Shown here piece by piece: positions 583-28,870 of a stretch of 40,618 bases of DNA. Origin of the DNA: a virus (taxonomy: Duplodnaviria > Heunggongvirae > Uroviricota > Caudoviricetes); IMG/VR virus record IMGVR_UViG_2718218168_000006. One strand, 5' to 3'. Under the pieces are notes generated by a model. It was not told the DNA's origin. It saw nothing but the letters and a program-made list of their open reading frames with translations, and ran no database searches. Position 1 is the stretch's first letter. Each line of letters opens with the position of its first letter. The translations under genes and the position numbers were made by a program.

Positions 583-3500
583 TATGCAAGCCTCACAATA
601 TAGTTAAATGCGATGTTTTTGACGGTGTTTTCCGCGTTACCAGCAGCGTTAACGGTGATGGTGTGTCCATGTGAACCAATCGCAACGGAGTGCGTATGAG
701 CACCAATACCGACAGTATGCGCGTGTGCACCTGCAGATGCTGCTGTGCCGGACAGTGAATGGCTATGATTACCATCTGTACTGGTATTCGCTAACCACCC
801 CGTAGACATACCTACTGAGCCTTGTACACCCCAGGTATTTTGACCTGAGCTTGTATAACCATATTGATAAGTATCTTTAAAAACACTGGGGTTAAATCGA
901 CGGCCATCTCTATGGCTGTGATTACCAGCTGCATTCGTGCTGCCACTTAAACTATGGGTATGCGCACCAGTGTTATTCGTGGATTTAGTGCCGTAATCAA
1001 ACGACGATGTGGTTTTCGTCCCCAAATCCGTACTGGATGCGCTGGCGCTGTGGGTATGCGATTTAATGCCGTCCTGTTCCTGAGACAATACGGCCCGACC
1101 ACTGGCAGGTTTGCCCTTAATCGTCCAGCCACGCATATCAGGGATCACGCCTGACGGATAAGCCGCTGCAAGTTTCGGGTATGCAGATTTGTCAAAAGCC
1201 TGCCCCTGCATCAGGGCATAGCCAGACGGAACGGTATCTGATGGCCACGGGATTGGTGCGCCAGGCGGATAAAACTGCTCTGATGGCGTATAGAGTGAAT
1301 AAACTGTACCGTCCGTTAACCCTTCCGGCTTATTAGCAGAATATGCTGGTGACGTATGAATCGTCACGCTGGCATTACTGGTATAATCCCATTGAATATT
1401 TACACCAGTCGCATAATTTCCGATTGCAACGTAAATATCGTAAGTATCACCAGATGTATTAACCCAGGCAAAATTTGTAAACCCTGCCGATGTGCGCTGC
1501 CATAAAGCACCAGTAATCCCCTTCGGATTACCATTACCTGCACGCAAAACAAGTTCAGATATACCTGCCTGTTGAGGTGAACCGACGTTATATCCAGCCC
1601 CACCAATCAACGTAATTGAAACAACAGAACTCGCCTGCGGCATGGTTACCGTTGCCAGCTTGAACCATCCAGCACCACCAATAAAAGACATTGTTGTGGA
1701 GTTGATCGTGCCTATAGACCGTGGGTTAAGTTCAATATCTTTAGAACCATCAAACGAGACGCCGTTGATAGTACATGCTGTCTGCAACTTGGTCGCTGTC
1801 GCTGCATTACCGGTAGTGTCTTGATTACCTTTTGTATTCACACCAGGCAAATCTATATCGGCTGAACCATCAAAGGATACACCACCTATGTTTATTGAAC
1901 TTGCTAATTTCGTTGCTGTTGCTGCATTTCCTGAAAGGCTTGAAACAAACTGATGTGAGCAATAATAACCACGTCCATTTTTAAAATCCAGAATGGTTTG
2001 AGTATTTGTACTTTCTGCTACTGGATCTGTGGCCCCCCACTTATAAGTGGTTTGACCAACTGCATAATCAGCCGTTGGAACAATTACGTTCAAGCCCTCC
2101 TCAGCAAATATATTGATAGGGAATGCTCTGGCTTCAACGTAAAATACACTACACAAATCGTCATCTTTCACACTTGAAATAATCGAGTGTATAGCTCGCT
2201 CAGCAGTAGAATATATTGAGAAAAAACCAGCCGCATATGAACCGCGATCAGACCAACCGCCAGGCATAACAAACCCATTAAATTCACAATTATTCATGGC
2301 GTATCCGCCAGCTGAGGAATAAGTAGTTATCACAACTCGTGAGGCTAATTCATCGGTACTGCCTCCAGATCGGCGAAAGACTATAGGATACCACTTACCG
2401 CTTACTGCATTTGCAGGAGCAGAGAAAGTGTATTTTCGCATCCCCTTTTTCTGATCCACTTCACCTTTGCTGTAAACATTAATGTTACTCAGGAAGCGGT
2501 CCTTGTCGGGAATATCAGCACCGTTCTGGTCTTTCTGCAGACGTTTCTCTGCATTGTCATAGGCTGCTTTTACTGCCTTTGGCGTTGCCGCCAGTGACTC
2601 GGAAGTGCTGTTGGTCGCACTGCTGAGCTGTACTATCCCCTTTTTCGTCGTGCTCGCATCCTCAAGCGCCACGGCGGATGCAATATCCTCTGCCCGTTTT
2701 GCTGCTGTCTCGGCGCGCGTTGCCGCGGATTCTGCTGTACTTTTGCTCTGTGCTGCCGCCGTCGCACTGCCAGCTGCCTCTGTCGCTTTCGTGGATGCCG
2801 TCGTGGCGCTGCCCTTCGCTGCTGACGCCTGTCTGGTCGCCTCATCTTTTGAAGCAGACGCAGATGAGGCCGATGACGCCGCCGAACTGGCGGACGATGC
2901 GGCAGCCGTTTTTGAGGATTCTGCGCTGGTTTCCGACGCTTTCGCGTTCGTTTCGGATGTCTTCGCTGCGGAAGCAGACCTCGCTGCTGCGCTGGCCTGT
3001 TCAGTGGCTTCGCCAGCCTTCGTTGTGGCTGTTGAAGCAGACGATGCTGCGCTTTCTGCCGATTTTCCGGCGGCGGTGGCACTGGCTGAGGCCTGCCCGG
3101 CACTTGTTGACGCAGCACTGGCAGACGACGCAGCCGCTGTTTTTGAACCTGCCGCAGCTGAGGCGCTCTGTCCCGCTGCTGTTTCAGAAGACTTAGCGTT
3201 CGTCTCGGACGTTTTTGCCGCCTTCGCGGAATTTCCTGCCGCTGTTGCCGAGGAAGCTGCGCTACTGGCGCTCGAGGATGCGTTCGTTTCTGATGATTTT
3301 GCCGCCTCTTTTGAAGCCGCCGCATCCCGGGCTGAGGTGGCAGCTTCTGACGCTTTCGTAGTCGCGGTGGATGCAGAAGTGGCTGCTGATTGTTGTGACG
3401 CTGCAGCATTCGTTTCTGACGTTTTCGCGGCACTGGCACTGGTAGCTGCCGCGCTTTTTGAGGACTCTGCAGCGGCAGCACTTTTTGATGCTTCAGTGGC

Positions 3501-24203: not shown

Positions 24204-24554
24204 TTAAGGTTGTGATTCCGGAGGAGTCTTCAGAGAACCAGTAATTCTTCCTGGTAGCTTTCCTTTGTAGGTTATCCAAACATTCTGCGCATCTAAAATT
24301 ACGGGGCGCTTTTCCGGCGACTGCTCATCCCCTTCACATAACCCGGCAGCAACATCCAGGAAGACCTGTCTGATGCTCCTTCTGGCTGCTGCCTCATAAA
24401 CCTCCAGCGCGGCACCTTCAACACGGTCCAGCGAGATGTCCAGGTCAAAAATTTCGCCGTCAAAGCGTTTTTTGTCCCGTAACGCTAAAGTTACCGTAAC
24501 TTTATTCTCAAAATTGCGGATCCCTTTCACAATCAGTTCATAGTTTTGAGTCAT
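24204..24554 (-). CDS. hypothetical protein between holin and endolysin (YdfR-like, probably DUF1327 family)
   Basis: 116 aa ORF inside the lysis cassette; same position as ydfR in the Qin prophage (family assignment from memory). Confidence 0.55.
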   Translation of the reverse strand: MTQNYELIVKGIRNFENKVTVTLALRDKKRFDGEIFDLDISLDRVEGAALEVYEAAARRSIRQVFLDVAAGLCEGDEQSPEKRPVILDAQNVWITYKGKLPGRITGSLKTPPESQP

Positions 24555-24558
24555 TGAA

Positions 24559-24774
24559 TTACTCTCCCCGTGCAGCCTTACGCTTGTCTTCTCTGATTTT
24601 GAAGTACAGATTTGTCAGATAAGTCAGGAAGCCCAGAACCAGACTCCCCAGAACACCAATCGCAGCCCACTGTGACGGACTGACCTGATCAAGCCACTGT
24701 AAAAACCAGTAGCCAGCACTGCCTGCGGAGGTGCCGTAGGCAATGCCCGTTGAAATTTTGTCCATGGATTTCAT
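24559..24774 (-). CDS. S: pinholin S (phage 21 S21-like), dual-start motif
   Basis: 71 aa [66 protein letters not shown].., essentially the S21 pinholin sequence with Met1/Met4 starts. Confidence 0.9.
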
Positions 24775-24934
24775 AGCCTCACCTCCGCAAATAACGGATG
24801 GCGTAGTTTTACACTGAGAAATGAAAGGGATTTGAAAAGAAAAAACCGCAAAAGCGGGCGAAACGATATATACAGAAAGGAAAGCACTCTATCCAACAAA
24901 CCACCCACAGTTGATCGGAATAAAAGCAGAGTGC

Positions 24935-25007
24935 TTATGAATGATCGCCTGCCCGAAGGTTAGTATTTCTGCACAGCAATTTTGCAAAAAAAGGCGATCA
25001 TTCATAA
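24935..25007. repeat. 16-bp perfect inverted repeat (TTATGAATGATCGCCT / AGGCGATCATTCATAA) separated by about 41 bp
   Basis: Read directly from the sequence between tRNA-Gly and the S gene. Confidence 0.6.
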
Positions 25008-25066
25008 CTTAAACGTCTTTCAGTCACTCCGGGATTTCCCATCATCGCAGACTGAAAGACTCTGAC

Positions 25067-25141
<75 letters not shown>

Positions 25142-25144
25142 ATA

Positions 25145-25220
<76 letters not shown>

Positions 25221-25222
25221 AC

Positions 25223-25299
25223 TGGACCGCCACCGGGGACTCGAACCTCGCACACTCAACTTAAAGGGTTGACGCTCTTTCCTGATGAGCTAGTGGCGG
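25223..25299 (-). tRNA. atypical tRNA (anticodon loop CCTTTAA, apparent anticodon UUU; C at position 33)
   Basis: 7-bp acceptor stem CCGCCAC/GTGGCGG, T-loop TTCGAGT, encoded CCA; C33 and one T-stem mismatch make identity uncertain. Confidence 0.4.
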
Positions 25300-25300
25300 T

Positions 25301-25376
25301 TGGTGGCCCTTGCTGGATTTGAACCAGCGACCTGGCGATTATGAGTCGCTCGCTCTCACCACTGAGCTAAAGGGCC
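25301..25376 (-). tRNA. tRNA-Ile2/Met (anticodon CAU), ileX/ileZ-like
   Basis: GGCCCTTTAGCTCAGTGGTGAGAGC..CTCATAA..GGTTCAAATCC..AAGGGCC-A-CCA; resembles E. coli ileX. Confidence 0.7.
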
Positions 25377-25493
25377 GGGCGCAGGATAATAACGTTACGA
25401 AATCAATGTTGCAAGCATTCAAAAATCACCTGGTTAAAAATCACCCTTATCTCCTCCACCAGCGCATTCACCATGTCTATCCGAGATAAGTGG

Positions 25494-25521
25494 CACAAAA
25501 AAACCCGCTTGATGCGGGTTT
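25494..25521 (-). terminator. intrinsic terminator upstream of the tRNA cluster (tR-prime-like)
   Basis: aaacccgc-ttgat-gcgggttt hairpin followed on the minus strand by about 7 T. Confidence 0.55.
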
Positions 25522-25641
25522 AAGTTGTGTGGCGAAGCGACCACTCTTAACAGATTAAGATAGTTTTTGCGTACGCGTTAGTGATTTTTTCATAATTATC
25601 TGTATCCTGTGGCTATTTCTCTTGCGCAAAGGATGCTTTTG

Positions 25642-26520
25642 ATGACGCAGCAACTCGAAAACATGCCAATAACAGAAATCGAAATTGCCTACGGTGGAGA
25701 GGCATACGCAGATAATCAGATCGACGCGAAAACATTAGGCGAAGCCTTAACCTCTCTTAGTGCCCTGATTGAACACGCCGAAAAAATAATTAATGGCGAA
25801 ACAGCAGAGCCGAAAGTCAACATCAAGGCAACAAAAGAAGGTTCATTTACTTTGCTTGTTGCTGTGATGGGGAGCATAAAAACTATTAACGCCCTTGGCC
25901 TCGTTGCAGGTGGTGGAGTTGCCGCAGGTGGCGTACTCGGGATAATCGAATGGCTCAAAGGGCGTAAAATCAGCTCCATTGTCGTCGATGAACAAAAAGA
26001 TACAGCAGAAATCGAAGTGGATGGTGAGAAGGTTAAATGCAGTAACGACATTCAAAAATTAATAACCAGTCCAATCATCCGAAAAGAACTGGATAAATTA
26101 ATCTATAAACCCCTGCAGACTGAAAAACCATCCACGTTCTCAGTTTCACAGCAGAAGCATAAGGTAGTCAGGGTGACGCAAGCTGAAGCAGTAAGTTTTA
26201 AAACTGCAAAATCCACCTTTGTCGAGAAAACGCACGTAACGACACGCCAAGCTAATGTACATTTTGCTAATGTTCGATTCAAGCAAGGCAAAAGCTGGGA
26301 TATCATCCTGCCAAATGGCGAAGAAGTTAGCGCATCTATGAAAGATGAGGCTTTTCTTGAACGGGTTGAACACAACCAAGCAGCATTCTGTAAGGGTGAT
26401 CTTTTTGTTGTAGAACTGACAGAAACAACAAAAGAAACAAATGGCGCGCTGTCTAAACCACGCTATAGTATTACTAAGGTTATACGCCACAGAGCGGCGG
26501 CAGATAGGAAACTACTTTAA
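25642..26520 (+). CDS. hypothetical protein with central Gly-rich hydrophobic segment (first gene of 3-gene cargo operon)
   Basis: Track ORF 25609..26520; probable ATG at about 25642 (MTQQLENMP..) after AAGGA; contains FTLLVAVMGSIKTINALGLVAGGGVAAGGVLGIIEWL; AT-rich relative to flanking phage genes. Confidence 0.6.
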   Translation: MTQQLENMPITEIEIAYGGEAYADNQIDAKTLGEALTSLSALIEHAEKIINGETAEPKVNIKATKEGSFTLLVAVMGSIKTINALGLVAGGGVAAGGVLGIIEWLKGRKISSIVVDEQKDTAEIEVDGEKVKCSNDIQKLITSPIIRKELDKLIYKPLQTEKPSTFSVSQQKHKVVRVTQAEAVSFKTAKSTFVEKTHVTTRQANVHFANVRFKQGKSWDIILPNGEEVSASMKDEAFLERVEHNQAAFCKGDLFVVELTETTKETNGALSKPRYSITKVIRHRAAADRKLL

Positions 26521-26523
26521 ATC

Positions 26524-26769
26524 ATGTCAATCCTAAGCATTATGCTTTACATCACTGTATTCATGGCTGTCGCAGCGACGGTCAGATATGCTGTGCTTAG
26601 GTTCTTGGTTTGGGTAAAGCCGAATGCGTATATTGAACTAACCTACACCGATCCTGAAGGCAGAACCGCTAAAAGGAAAGTCAGCGTTAGAAACGAAAAT
26701 GACGCAGAAGAGTTGGCGCTACTGCTACGCGAACTCAAAACTCGCAACGAAGCAAGTGCAGGAAGGTGA
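26524..26769 (+). CDS. small membrane protein (1 predicted TM), second gene of cargo operon
   Basis: 81 aa ORF MSILSIMLYITVFMAVAATVRYAVLRFLVW..; starts 3 nt after the upstream stop. Confidence 0.55.
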   Translation: MSILSIMLYITVFMAVAATVRYAVLRFLVWVKPNAYIELTYTDPEGRTAKRKVSVRNENDAEELALLLRELKTRNEASAGR

Positions 26770-27156
26770 ATGGCGAACACTAAATCCTACCTGGCAATGC
26801 AGGCATGGTTTACCACCCTTATCACTGCGGGATTGAATTTCCTTTTTGACTGGCTTCCTCAATTAGCCTTCTTCAAATCATTGGCGCCTGGAGCTGCTGT
26901 CGGCTTATCTCATGTGGTAATTCTTCTTATCGCTTACATAGGTTTGCCTACGCTTAATGATGTAAGAATGAAAAGGGAAATAAAAACGGCCAGAAAATTC
27001 ATCACGAACTGCCTGGCCAACCCTAACCTAACACCAGACCAAATTGCGCACTACAACCAATGTCTTATCGATCTAGACAATAAGCTATTAAAAAACATAA
27101 ATATTCGTATTGATGCTTTATCTGACGCCGAATCGAAAGCTCAAGCAAACGAGTAG
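26770..27156 (+). CDS. small membrane protein (2 predicted TM) with helical C-terminal tail, third gene of cargo operon
   Basis: 128 aa ORF; ATG immediately follows the upstream TGA; convergent with and ending about 13 nt from the Q stop. Confidence 0.55.
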   Translation: MANTKSYLAMQAWFTTLITAGLNFLFDWLPQLAFFKSLAPGAAVGLSHVVILLIAYIGLPTLNDVRMKREIKTARKFITNCLANPNLTPDQIAHYNQCLIDLDNKLLKNINIRIDALSDAESKAQANE

Positions 27157-27169
27157 TAACAGTCATAAC

Positions 27170-27519
27170 TTATGATAGAATCAAGCATATACATCCATCA
27201 ATAAAGCCTAATGCAGTTTGCAGCTCCTTTCTTATAGTTCCATCTGAGCACCTGCGTTTCTTCGCGATTGAGCGTAGAGAAACACCAATAACAAAGTGAG
27301 CTATGAGCAGCTCATATTCCTCTGGTTTATACTTTCGCAACCGAGCCACACAACCGTCTATCATGATGCCTTCATCATCATCACACTGGAGACGTGACTT
27401 TTTGCCATGTGGCAAAAGCCCCTTGAAGCCCGCTGCTATCGGTTGCCAATCGACACCGCTATTTTCTGCTGCAGCCCATGCCCCCAGCGATCTAAAACCT
27501 CATACATATCACGCCCCAT
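27170..27519 (-). pseudogene. Q: late-gene antiterminator Q (QuuD-like), interrupted by a frameshift
   Basis: N-terminal frame MGRDMYEVLDRWG.. (ATG overlapping rusA stop) stops after 27 codons; C-terminal track ORF 27170..27415 is open upstream as ..AWAAAENSGVDWQPIAAGFKGLLP..; fusion at a C-run near 27481-27485 restores the QuuD-like RWGAWAA motif. Confidence 0.75.
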
Positions 27520-27886
27520 TACCATCACCTCTGATTTCGCAAATCTTCACGCCCAGTCGCCCACCAGGAACGAGCTGACCGCGCACAATATTGATTTCAT
27601 CAAACTGCTCGTCGTCTATGAGAAGCCCCGCATGCGTCAGTGCATCCAGCGGTGCTTTCAGGATATTGTCCAGGTCCCGACGGCGCTTATCCGGCGGCTC
27701 TGCAGTAATTTTTATTGCCAGCCTTCCGGACAGGTTTAATTTCAGCCGCTGCTGGCGAACAATTAGCGCCACATCACGGCGATAACGCTTTCCGGCTTCC
27801 GAGATGAAATACGTATTGCCATGACGTCGCCAGTAGGTATTCACCGTCGGCGGGTAAGGCAAAACAAATTCTATGCGTTCAGTCAT
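27509..27886 (-). CDS. rusA: Holliday junction resolvase RusA
   Basis: 125 aa ORF with RusA motifs (PPTVNTYW..DLDNILKAPLDALTHAGLLIDD). Confidence 0.85.
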   Translation of the reverse strand: MTERIEFVLPYPPTVNTYWRRHGNTYFISEAGKRYRRDVALIVRQQRLKLNLSGRLAIKITAEPPDKRRRDLDNILKAPLDALTHAGLLIDDEQFDEINIVRGQLVPGGRLGVKICEIRGDGNGA

Positions 27887-28870
27887 TCATGCTTTCCACT
27901 TCAGGACACCCGAATTTCTCGCGTGCATTAAAAAACGAATCAGCAACAACAGCTGGCTGCCGTGTTTTTCTTCAAAATCTTTTACCCCGGCGTGCAGTTC
28001 GTTATGACATTTACGGCACAGAGGAATAACAAACAAATCATCAGCCTTTGTTCCCATCCCTCCCAGTCCATGACCAATGATGTGATGCGGATCATCTGCC
28101 TGATTACCGCACGTCATGCATTTCTGCGTTTTTACCCAACGCGTGTATACAGGCATCTCTTCCCGTTGTGGTTTCTGGCGCTGGAGATACTGAGCCGGTG
28201 ACTCCGGATCAACGGCAATGCTGACCACCGTCTTTTCCTGTGGCGGGTTTTGCTGGTGGGCGTGAGGCAGCGGCGCAAGATTTTTTGTGCGCTGCTTCAG
28301 TATGCTGGTGGCGGTCTGCTCTCCCGGTACGATGTCGCTTTCACGGTACATTGAGCGGATTTTTTCCGCACGCAACCCCAGCGAACGACGTAATACCGCT
28401 TCCGGTAGCGCGTCCGCCACCTGATTGCGGACCGCCCACCAGGATAATTCAGCCAGAGATAATTCACGCTCCTGCGTACCGCTTATTGCGTGACCGATGA
28501 CGTCAATCATCCATGCTGACAGGTTTTGATGAGCAAGTTGCTCGAGTGATTCGGATGTCTGGTCACGCAGCTGGTTGTCGCAGTGCCAGCACAACACCAT
28601 TGCGCCGGTACCATAACGGTGAATGACGGTTTCGCTGTGATGATAATCGCCGTGTGGCCACTGGCAGGATTTAATATGGCGCAACAGCCAGTCAGACAAT
28701 GCACCAGCACCACCAGCAGCACGAATCACCCGTGCGTTACTGAAAAACGGCAGCAATGTTTTGTCTTCCACCAGCGGCTGGCGAACGGCAGGAACGACCC
28801 CGGACGGCAGATTACGCATGCTTTTCGGTTCAGGCTCCACCAGCACTCGAGGGTTATGAAATACTTGCAT
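27887..28870 (-). CDS. DUF968-domain protein (YdfU-like)
   Basis: ORF with C-terminal Cys/His-rich region (CMTCGN..HHIIGHG..CRKCHNELH); probable ATG at about 28870 (MQVFHNPRV). Confidence 0.7.
   Translation of the reverse strand: MQVFHNPRVLVEPEPKSMRNLPSGVVPAVRQPLVEDKTLLPFFSNARVIRAAGGAGALSDWLLRHIKSCQWPHGDYHHSETVIHRYGTGAMVLCWHCDNQLRDQTSESLEQLAHQNLSAWMIDVIGHAISGTQERELSLAELSWWAVRNQVADALPEAVLRRSLGLRAEKIRSMYRESDIVPGEQTATSILKQRTKNLAPLPHAHQQNPPQEKTVVSIAVDPESPAQYLQRQKPQREEMPVYTRWVKTQKCMTCGNQADDPHHIIGHGLGGMGTKADDLFVIPLCRKCHNELHAGVKDFEEKHGSQLLLLIRFLMHARNSGVLKWKA

Follow-up and report, generated by a model that had tools for sequence, protein, structure and literature searches.

A predicted late promoter and terminator module separated from the antiterminator gene Q by a reverse-oriented cargo operon in a lambdoid Escherichia coli prophage

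Results

The window, meaning the whole stretch of 40,618 nucleotides (nt) that we analyzed (IMG/VR virus record IMGVR_UViG_2718218168_000006), is a lambdoid prophage of Escherichia coli with its late genes on the minus strand. We investigated the noncoding stretch between a cargo operon and a group of tRNA genes, which holds a promoter/terminator module, and we propose that this module contains the late promoter (pR') of the prophage and the first terminator at which its Q antiterminator would act. We refer to positions 25494 to 25590 on the minus strand as the conserved core module. A Q protein of Pfam family PF06530 is encoded upstream on the same strand, with a 1-base-pair (bp) deletion in the window copy, and tRNA, holin, lysozyme, and Rz genes lie downstream, also on the minus strand (Table 1). 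An earlier interpretation made from the letters of the window without database searches (the sequence-only reading) had stated that Q abuts a convergent cargo operon and that the late promoter is displaced from Q by about 1.7 kilobases (kb). Both statements agree with what we found: the stop codons of Q (27170) and of the cargo operon (27156) converge with 13 bp between them, and the distance from the Q stop codon to the predicted late start is 1,625 bp. The Q gene is located 1.6 kb upstream of the promoter because the reverse-oriented cargo cassette occupies the gap.

Table 1. Positions of the genes and regulatory features around the module
Feature	Position	Strand	Description
DUF968 gene	29014-27887	minus	first in the late direction of the region
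RusA gene	27886-27509	minus	
Q antiterminator gene	27519-27170	minus	Pfam PF06530, Q21/Q933W family; called subtype A
Cargo operon, three genes	25642-27156	plus	open reading frames of 292, 81, and 128 amino acids; convergent with Q
Candidate cargo promoter	25567-25596	plus	-35 TTGCGT (25567-25572), 18-nt spacer, -10 CATAAT (25591-25596); ribosome binding site and ATG 25642 follow
A-tract	25585-25590	minus	-46 to -41 of pR'; conserved across all three Q subtypes in module alignments
Weak pR' -35	25581-25576	minus	CTAACG, 18-nt spacer
Dyad, candidate Q binding element	25565-25580	minus	TAACGCGTACGCAAAA; core palindrome GCGTACGC (25576-25569); center near -27/-28; contains the weak pR' -35
pR' -10 hexamer	25557-25552	minus	TAATCT; aligns with TATCAT of 933W
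Predicted late start	25545	minus	A, 7 nt past the -10; homology to the Sp5 pR' start
Initial transcribed region	25529-25544	minus	GTGG-N8-CCAC, +2 to +17; most conserved block across all Q subtypes
Intrinsic terminator, tR'-like	25494-25521	minus	hairpin 25521-25501 and T7 25500-25494; scan, folding, and comparison
tRNA promoter pT	25386-25414	minus	TTGCAA, 17 nt, TATTAT; consensus scan; matches pT annotated in 933W
Four tRNA genes	25376-25067	minus	CAT anticodon, then Lys, Thr, Gly; first genes past the terminator
Lysis genes (holin, DUF1327, lysozyme, Rz-like)	24774-23143	minus	start of the predicted Q-dependent late operon

We compared the window with related loci in a set of 253 sequences, which consisted of loci from IMG/VR, phage records, E. 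coli genomes, and the window itself, and we clustered the Q proteins at 75% identity (Table 2). The Q proteins of the phages named below as carrying the module all belong to PF06530, a family that is called Q21/Q933W after Yin et al.; this includes the intact allele of the window's Q (116 amino acids; NZ_CP054191), which matched PF06530 with an E value of 3.5e-45. A search for distant DNA homologues found that positions 25492 to 25618 are common to many Stx phages and other lambdoid phages. The homologue of the core module begins at the Q stop codon in 1720a-02 (126-amino-acid Q), 933W, and H-19B, and it follows reverse-oriented cargo in Stx2a_1447, cdtI, Stx1_14040, mEp460_4F5, and the K-12 prophage DLP12.

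The module aligns column for column with the post-Q region of phage 933W, for which the record gives a putative pR', Q utilization site (qut), and terminator, and it aligns equally well with H-19B and with the Sakai prophage Sp5. These three encode a 144-amino-acid Q of the Q933W type, within the same PF06530 family as the Q of the window, and the homology extends from the A-tract through the -10 hexamer, the start, and the GTGG-N8-CCAC leader to the first hairpin-terminator. In 933W, a dyad occupies the same position as the dyad of the window, and a tRNA promoter and tRNA genes follow in both. The systems also differ in several respects. The 933W module abuts Q, with its -35 overlapping the Q stop codon; its dyad is TTTACGATCGTAAA; its -35 and -10 are better (TTTACG, 16 nt, TATCAT); and it has TACATT at the position of the pause element. 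Moreover, 933W and Sp5 carry a second terminator at +258, the mapped tR' and the source of the small RNA (sRNA) StxS, which is absent from the window.

The position of the late start in the window was predicted from this homology. In Sp5, the late start was mapped by differential RNA sequencing (dRNA-seq) and the 3' end by Term-seq, and the two are 258 nt apart (Sy et al. 2020, PMC7547250). Sp5 and 933W match over the pR' stretch that we compared, and the start, located by its distance from the U-tract at the second 933W/Sp5 terminator, falls in GATAAGAGTGG, 4 to 9 nt past TATCAT. The GATAAGAGTGG block (TAAGAG) is invariant in the module alignment, and its equivalent in the window is A25545; by way of the Sp5/933W alignment, the module thus contains a homologue of a sigma-70 late promoter whose start has been mapped. 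Because the match to consensus is poor, the assignment of the promoter rests on homology and conservation. At the position of the -10, all 102 unique modules have nAnnnT, 89 of them in the form TAnnnT. The sequence-only reading had placed the late promoter between 25522 and 25608, and homology to the pR' regions of 933W, Sp5, H-19B, and DLP12 supports this placement; it also suggests that the promoter can be narrowed to about 25545 to 25590. Within this interval, the A-tract is possibly an UP-element-like contact. Conservation within the module is highest over the first 20 nt of the leader, and the GTGG-N8-CCAC block could form a small leader hairpin.

Two other candidates in this part of the module were rejected. 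An alternative -10 (TATCTT), located 5 nt upstream, is largely kept in subtype A and absent from QuuD-type modules, and 933W has TCTGCA there; we preferred the hexamer that aligns with the -10 of 933W. An open reading frame (ORF) of 36 or 37 amino acids at about 25544 to 25434 on the minus strand is named "antiterminator" by RefSeq in relatives (WP_086259018.1). It has no Pfam or NCBIfam match and no ribosome binding site, and it extends from the predicted transcription start across the terminator; we take it to be a probable annotation artifact.

The terminator was found where the sequence-only reading had placed it, just upstream of the tRNA genes. Its minus-strand hairpin, AAACCCGC-ATCAA-GCGGGTTT, has eight pairs, five of them G-C, and a fold energy of -11.7 kcal/mol, and it is followed by TTTTTTT. 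The predicted 56-nt transcript folds at -20.3 kcal/mol compared to a mean of -11 for shuffled sequences (z = -3.5), with 1 of 200 shuffles as good. A loose terminator scan of positions 24500 to 28000 showed no enrichment overall (7 found, 4.3 +/- 2.3 expected); however, among the minus-strand sites in that range, 25494-25521 alone combined a long G+C stem with a T run free of interruptions, and the remaining six matches had poor tails. In the window, therefore, an intrinsic terminator lies between the predicted promoter and the late genes. Considering 101 unique modules, we detected a hairpin of -7 kcal/mol or lower whose T-rich tail ended between +42 and +59 in 73 (shuffled leaders, 7 of 101) and weaker versions in approximately 23 more. 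There were 44 distinct hairpin sequences among these modules, several with unrelated stems, so that structure and position are kept while the sequence turns over.

The terminator had previously been described as tR'-like. This description stands insofar as it is an intrinsic terminator behind the predicted late promoter; it does not extend to equivalence with the mapped Sp5 tR', given that the window hairpin is the counterpart of the first of the two 933W hairpins (+27 to +50) rather than of the tR' at +258 that was mapped by Term-seq. The stretch from inside the hairpin to the tRNA genes (25508-25377) is 98.5% identical to phage Evi (locus L007, in which 2990-3132 corresponds to 25377-25521), with the match starting inside the hairpin. 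In Evi, a terminator hairpin with a related stem and a different loop is located behind a lambda-type Q (PF03589) and a promoter that we take to be lambda-like (TAAATT, AACGAT). Two unrelated Q systems therefore have related hairpins as their first terminator, and a mosaic or recombination joint between these systems is marked by the hairpin of the window.

The dyad lies between the -35 and the -10, and its center falls in the same alignment column in every module. The sequence TAACGCGTACGCAAAA is nearly invariant in 53 unique subtype-A modules, and the core of the dyad is GCGTACGC with subtype A, GCGGTCCGC with subtype B, and TACGATCGTA with the Q of 933W. Each of the three Q clusters pairs with a single dyad class or with two close variants (Table 2), unlike the leader and terminator variants, which are common to different Q subtypes. 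Because the dyad changes with the Q subtype while the leader and terminator are shared, we consider the dyad the likely Q binding site, this pattern being the one expected of a Q-specific recognition site. The comparison thus yields a candidate Q binding site for each of three Q subtypes.

Table 2. Dyads of the three Q subtypes and location of the module relative to Q
Q subtype	Loci	Loci with module	Dyad	Dyad class	Adjacent to Q	Displaced from Q	Distance
A (the window's)	83	78	TAACGCGTACGCAAAA	CGCGTACGC	0	78	0.66-3.8 kb
B (1720a-02, cdtI)	57	54	core GCGGTCCGC	CGCGGTCCGC	26	28	up to 1.6 kb
QuuD/933W (many loci are near-identical DLP12 copies)	83	79	TTTACGTACGTAAA or TTTACGATCGTAAA	TTACGTACGTAA or TTACGATCGTAA	2 (933W, H-19B)	77	up to 3.0 kb

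In the window, the promoter does not directly follow Q, and the same is true of most related loci. Considering all loci with a module, it was displaced from Q by 0.66 to 3.8 kb in 184 of 213, including DLP12 and every subtype-A locus. Subtype B constitutes a natural experiment, with the same module adjacent to Q in some loci and displaced in others (Table 2). In 81 cargo-bearing gaps, representing all Q subtypes, reverse-strand ORFs account for 89% of the bases, compared to 3% for forward ORFs, and 39 ORF-size signatures can be distinguished. In these loci, the first reverse ORF ends at a median of approximately 21 bp from the Q stop codon, too close for a promoter, pause site, and terminator to fit beside Q. 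The gap between Q and pR' therefore looks like a hypervariable slot into which DNA has been inserted repeatedly in this phage group; a limited literature search found no specific description of a defense hotspot or cargo slot between Q and pR'. The displacement had been presented as a departure from the lambdoid rule that pR' comes right after Q. The window does depart from this rule, but the layout is ordinary, being widespread and present in K-12. Given its frequency in related loci, adjacency to Q is not really a defining property of Q21/Q933W-family cassettes.

The first cargo gene (292 amino acids) matched PADLOC PDC-S42 (E value of 2.8e-53) and NCBIfam LAPAL_fam (E value of 8.9e-67), making it a candidate anti-phage defense gene, and Pfam gave no match for any of the three cargo proteins. 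The proteins of 81 and 128 amino acids resemble membrane proteins by sequence and have no family match. The candidate cargo promoter has its -35 (TTGCGT) inside the dyad, at -27 to -22 of pR', and its geometry recurs in relatives: a -10-like hexamer is located exactly 17 nt from TTGCGT in 29 of 38 unique subtype-A upstream regions and 18 nt from it in 4 more, while any other single spacing occurs in 0 to 5 of the 38 regions and shuffles pass at 13%. None of seven adjacent subtype-B loci without cargo has this geometry. The cargo promoter and pR' overlap back to back within approximately 96 bp, in line with the suggestion in the sequence-only reading that the late promoter shares about 100 bp with a divergent cargo promoter.

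Discussion

We assign a probability of roughly 75% to the interpretation that positions 25494 to 25590 on the minus strand are the late regulatory module of a lambdoid prophage with a Q of the Q21/Q933W family. The module would consist, in order, of the A-tract, a weak -35, the Q-subtype-specific dyad TAACGCGTACGCAAAA, the -10 hexamer TAATCT, a start near A25545, the leader, and the terminator at about +52. Without Q, RNA polymerase would be expected to make an RNA of approximately 52 nt and to stop at the hairpin, whereas Q loaded at the promoter would allow readthrough into the tRNA, lysis, and structural genes. The conserved leader may contribute to pausing or to the loading of Q.

Several known systems resemble this scheme. 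The Q of phage 21 (Q21) belongs to the same protein family as the Q of the window, with a phmmer E value of 0.002 to PDB entries 6P18 and 6JNX. In the structural study of Q21 (bioRxiv 10.1101/651190), the protein attaches to a DNA element located at the late promoter and is loaded onto a complex in a sigma-dependent pause, after which it keeps terminator hairpins from forming; the template of the loaded complex carried -40 to -1 of pR'21. Compared to the Q of the window, Q21 is longer (162 versus 116 amino acids) and distantly similar, and it recognizes two 8-bp subsites arranged as a direct repeat, in contrast to the dyad of the window; our comparison with phage 21 was made at the level of the protein. 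The logic is also that of pR', 6S RNA, and tR' in lambda, where a constitutive promoter gives a short terminated RNA and Q-dependent readthrough extends into the lysis and morphogenesis genes. The terminated RNA of lambda is 194 nt long. Lambda differs in having an unrelated Q family, other promoter and binding-site sequences, and a promoter directly after Q.

The prophage DLP12 of K-12 has the same layout as the window: a small PF06530 Q (quuD), a reverse-oriented porin gene (nmpC), the module (locus L091, 4686-4782), and the lysis genes essD, rrrD, and rzpD. It differs in its cargo (the porin gene, which is interrupted by IS5), in a gap of 2.9 kb, in having TTTACGTACGTAAA as its dyad, and in the absence of tRNA genes. 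The Q of DLP12 reportedly controls the lysis cassette. The forward primer of a published DLP12 reporter (PMC7918800; fragment -121 to +650) maps inside nmpC (L091, 4254-4273), implying a +1 approximately 355 bp upstream of the module, with the reverse primer unmapped. DLP12 may have a second promoter, reported to be RpoE-dependent, ahead of the module.

Several observations weigh against our interpretation. By consensus, the promoter is poor, with 3 of 6 matches at the -35, 3 of 6 at the -10, and an 18-nt spacer. The sequence-only reading had reported no convincing -35 or -10 elements by eye, and our consensus promoter scan of 24500 to 28000 likewise missed pR', finding nothing on the minus strand in 25522 to 25608; its matches were the tRNA promoter, a chance-level site at the Q stop codon, and two others. 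No convincing sigma-dependent pause element is recognizable in the initial transcribed region of the window, where the pause-element position (+7 to +12) reads TCGCTT, compared to TACATT in 933W and TACTTC in most relatives. The homologous hairpin in Sp5 is apparently read through without Q, given the 258 nt between the start and the mapped 3' end; the efficiency of the window hairpin as a terminator is therefore unproven. In the K-12 Term-seq supplement of Adams et al., there is no 3' end at the DLP12 module, and none at essD or near 57727x. Physical linkage could account in part for the association of Q subtype with dyad, and the dyad could be conserved because it holds the -35 of the cargo promoter. 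Finally, Q is frameshifted in this copy, with five G residues at 27481-27485 compared to six in relatives (NZ_CP054191), and the product ends after 27 amino acids.

The frameshift raises the question of whether the module is a homologous but dead remnant, with a hairpin that merely blocks arriving transcription. We regard this as unlikely, although it accounts for some of the data. At the G run, an exact match to the window is absent from all 62 complete E. coli genomes with this Q, and the full-length matches among those listed are one base longer, except for one of equal length. The leader of the window also has TCGC at +7/+8 in place of the TTAC found in most relatives. A difference in homopolymer length could be a sequencing error, however, so the run of five G residues is either a private inactivating mutation, which would mean a dead Q, or an artifact of this kind. 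The TCGC variant occurs in relatives with an intact Q as well (loci L001 and L010-L015), making it a feature of the lineage rather than a sign of decay, and the rest of the module is 99 to 100% identical to those relatives. In any case, a dead remnant bears on present activity only and not on the identity of the element. Because Q is frameshifted, the late switch, including Q-dependent readthrough, is probably not working in this copy as sequenced; the prophage would have lost its late switch unless the length of the G run is a sequencing error.

It is also conceivable that the late promoter is still beside Q, at a TTGATG-18-TATCAT site (27201-27172), that Q-modified polymerase crosses the cargo operon antisense to reach the hairpin at 25494-25521, and that the conserved block is the cargo promoter only. 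The site matches consensus at 9 of 12 positions and overlaps the Q stop codon, as the -35 of pR' in 933W likewise overlaps the end of Q, and the -35 of the cargo promoter is indeed within the dyad. Yet the region holds no more promoter-like matches than chance would give (4 found, 5.0 expected), and the site falls in variable C-terminal codons of Q that differ among subtype-A relatives. No homology to a known pR' leader follows the site, and the cargo stop codon is 13 bp off, close to the short median distance in the cargo-bearing loci. The block upstream of the hairpin is kept where there is no cargo (1720a-02, 933W, H-19B, and 26 subtype-B loci), and the mapped Sp5 start is inside the conserved block. 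We consider a promoter beside Q highly improbable, and only marginally less so the idea that the unit chiefly makes a short regulatory RNA, like the StxS transcript from pR' to tR' of Stx phages, with late-gene control being secondary. The latter idea draws on the finding that in Sp5 and Sp15 the RNA from pR' to tR' is an sRNA bound by Hfq (Sy et al.) and on the strong conservation of the first 20 nt of the leader. Functional StxS, however, corresponds to the 3'-terminal 74 nt of an RNA of 258 nt, and the window differs past the first hairpin, with no second terminator before the tRNA genes; there is no Rfam match at the module; and a regulatory RNA and late-gene control are not mutually exclusive.

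Two known sRNAs were considered as the identity of the short RNA and set aside. StxS was rejected given that the homology with 933W stops at the first hairpin and that the window has no second terminator before the tRNA genes. HnrS, a multicopy prophage sRNA, was not used, as its paper places it only within prophage late genes and leaves the late promoter and antitermination unmentioned. A search of Rfam at a permissive threshold returned tRNAs only, with no match in the module. As a separate observation, the 933W and Sp5 hairpin at +27 to +50 (933W, locus L008, 3727-3749; Sp5, locus L090) resembles a strong intrinsic terminator (CCCGCC..GCGGG and T7), yet the published uninduced 3' end is at +258. 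A very short RNA ending at this first hairpin may have been overlooked in the mapping.

For annotation, our interpretation of the module implies that the late promoter of prophages with a small Q21/Q933W-family Q should be sought by its conserved leader (TAAGAGTGG...CCAC, followed by a terminator) rather than by its position beside Q. The space between Q and pR' is a busy cargo slot, which in this prophage holds a defense-candidate gene; its occupant in K-12 is nmpC, a porin gene, and Stx phages carry unnamed genes in it. While the late module itself is of a known kind, the more novel angle is this slot and the placement of a cargo promoter within a Q-specific dyad. We tentatively raise the further idea, doubtful as it stands, that the gap is a dedicated hypervariable slot for reverse-oriented accessory and defense genes whose promoter is built into pR'. 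If so, polymerase or Q at pR' would shut the cargo off during the late switch, and transcription of the cargo would compete with pR' during lysogeny, so that prophage defense genes would automatically be on in lysogeny and off in lytic growth. A limited literature search found no description of regulatory coupling between a cargo promoter and pR'.

Beyond the terminator, the promoter pT upstream of the tRNA genes is a good sigma-70 match, and a start site at pT driving the tRNA genes was mapped in Sp5 by Sy et al. (PMC7547250), so that production of the tRNAs need not depend on Q. The tRNA with anticodon CAT (25301-25376, minus strand) is called Met by ARAGORN and Ile by RefSeq in the identical gene of relatives (compare ileZ in 933W). 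Past the tRNA genes, at 24840-24857 on the minus strand and approximately 65 bp upstream of the holin start, we read from the sequence a weak terminator-like site (CCGC-TTTT-GCGG and T6) that was not in the scan output and might act as a second Q-dependent barrier.

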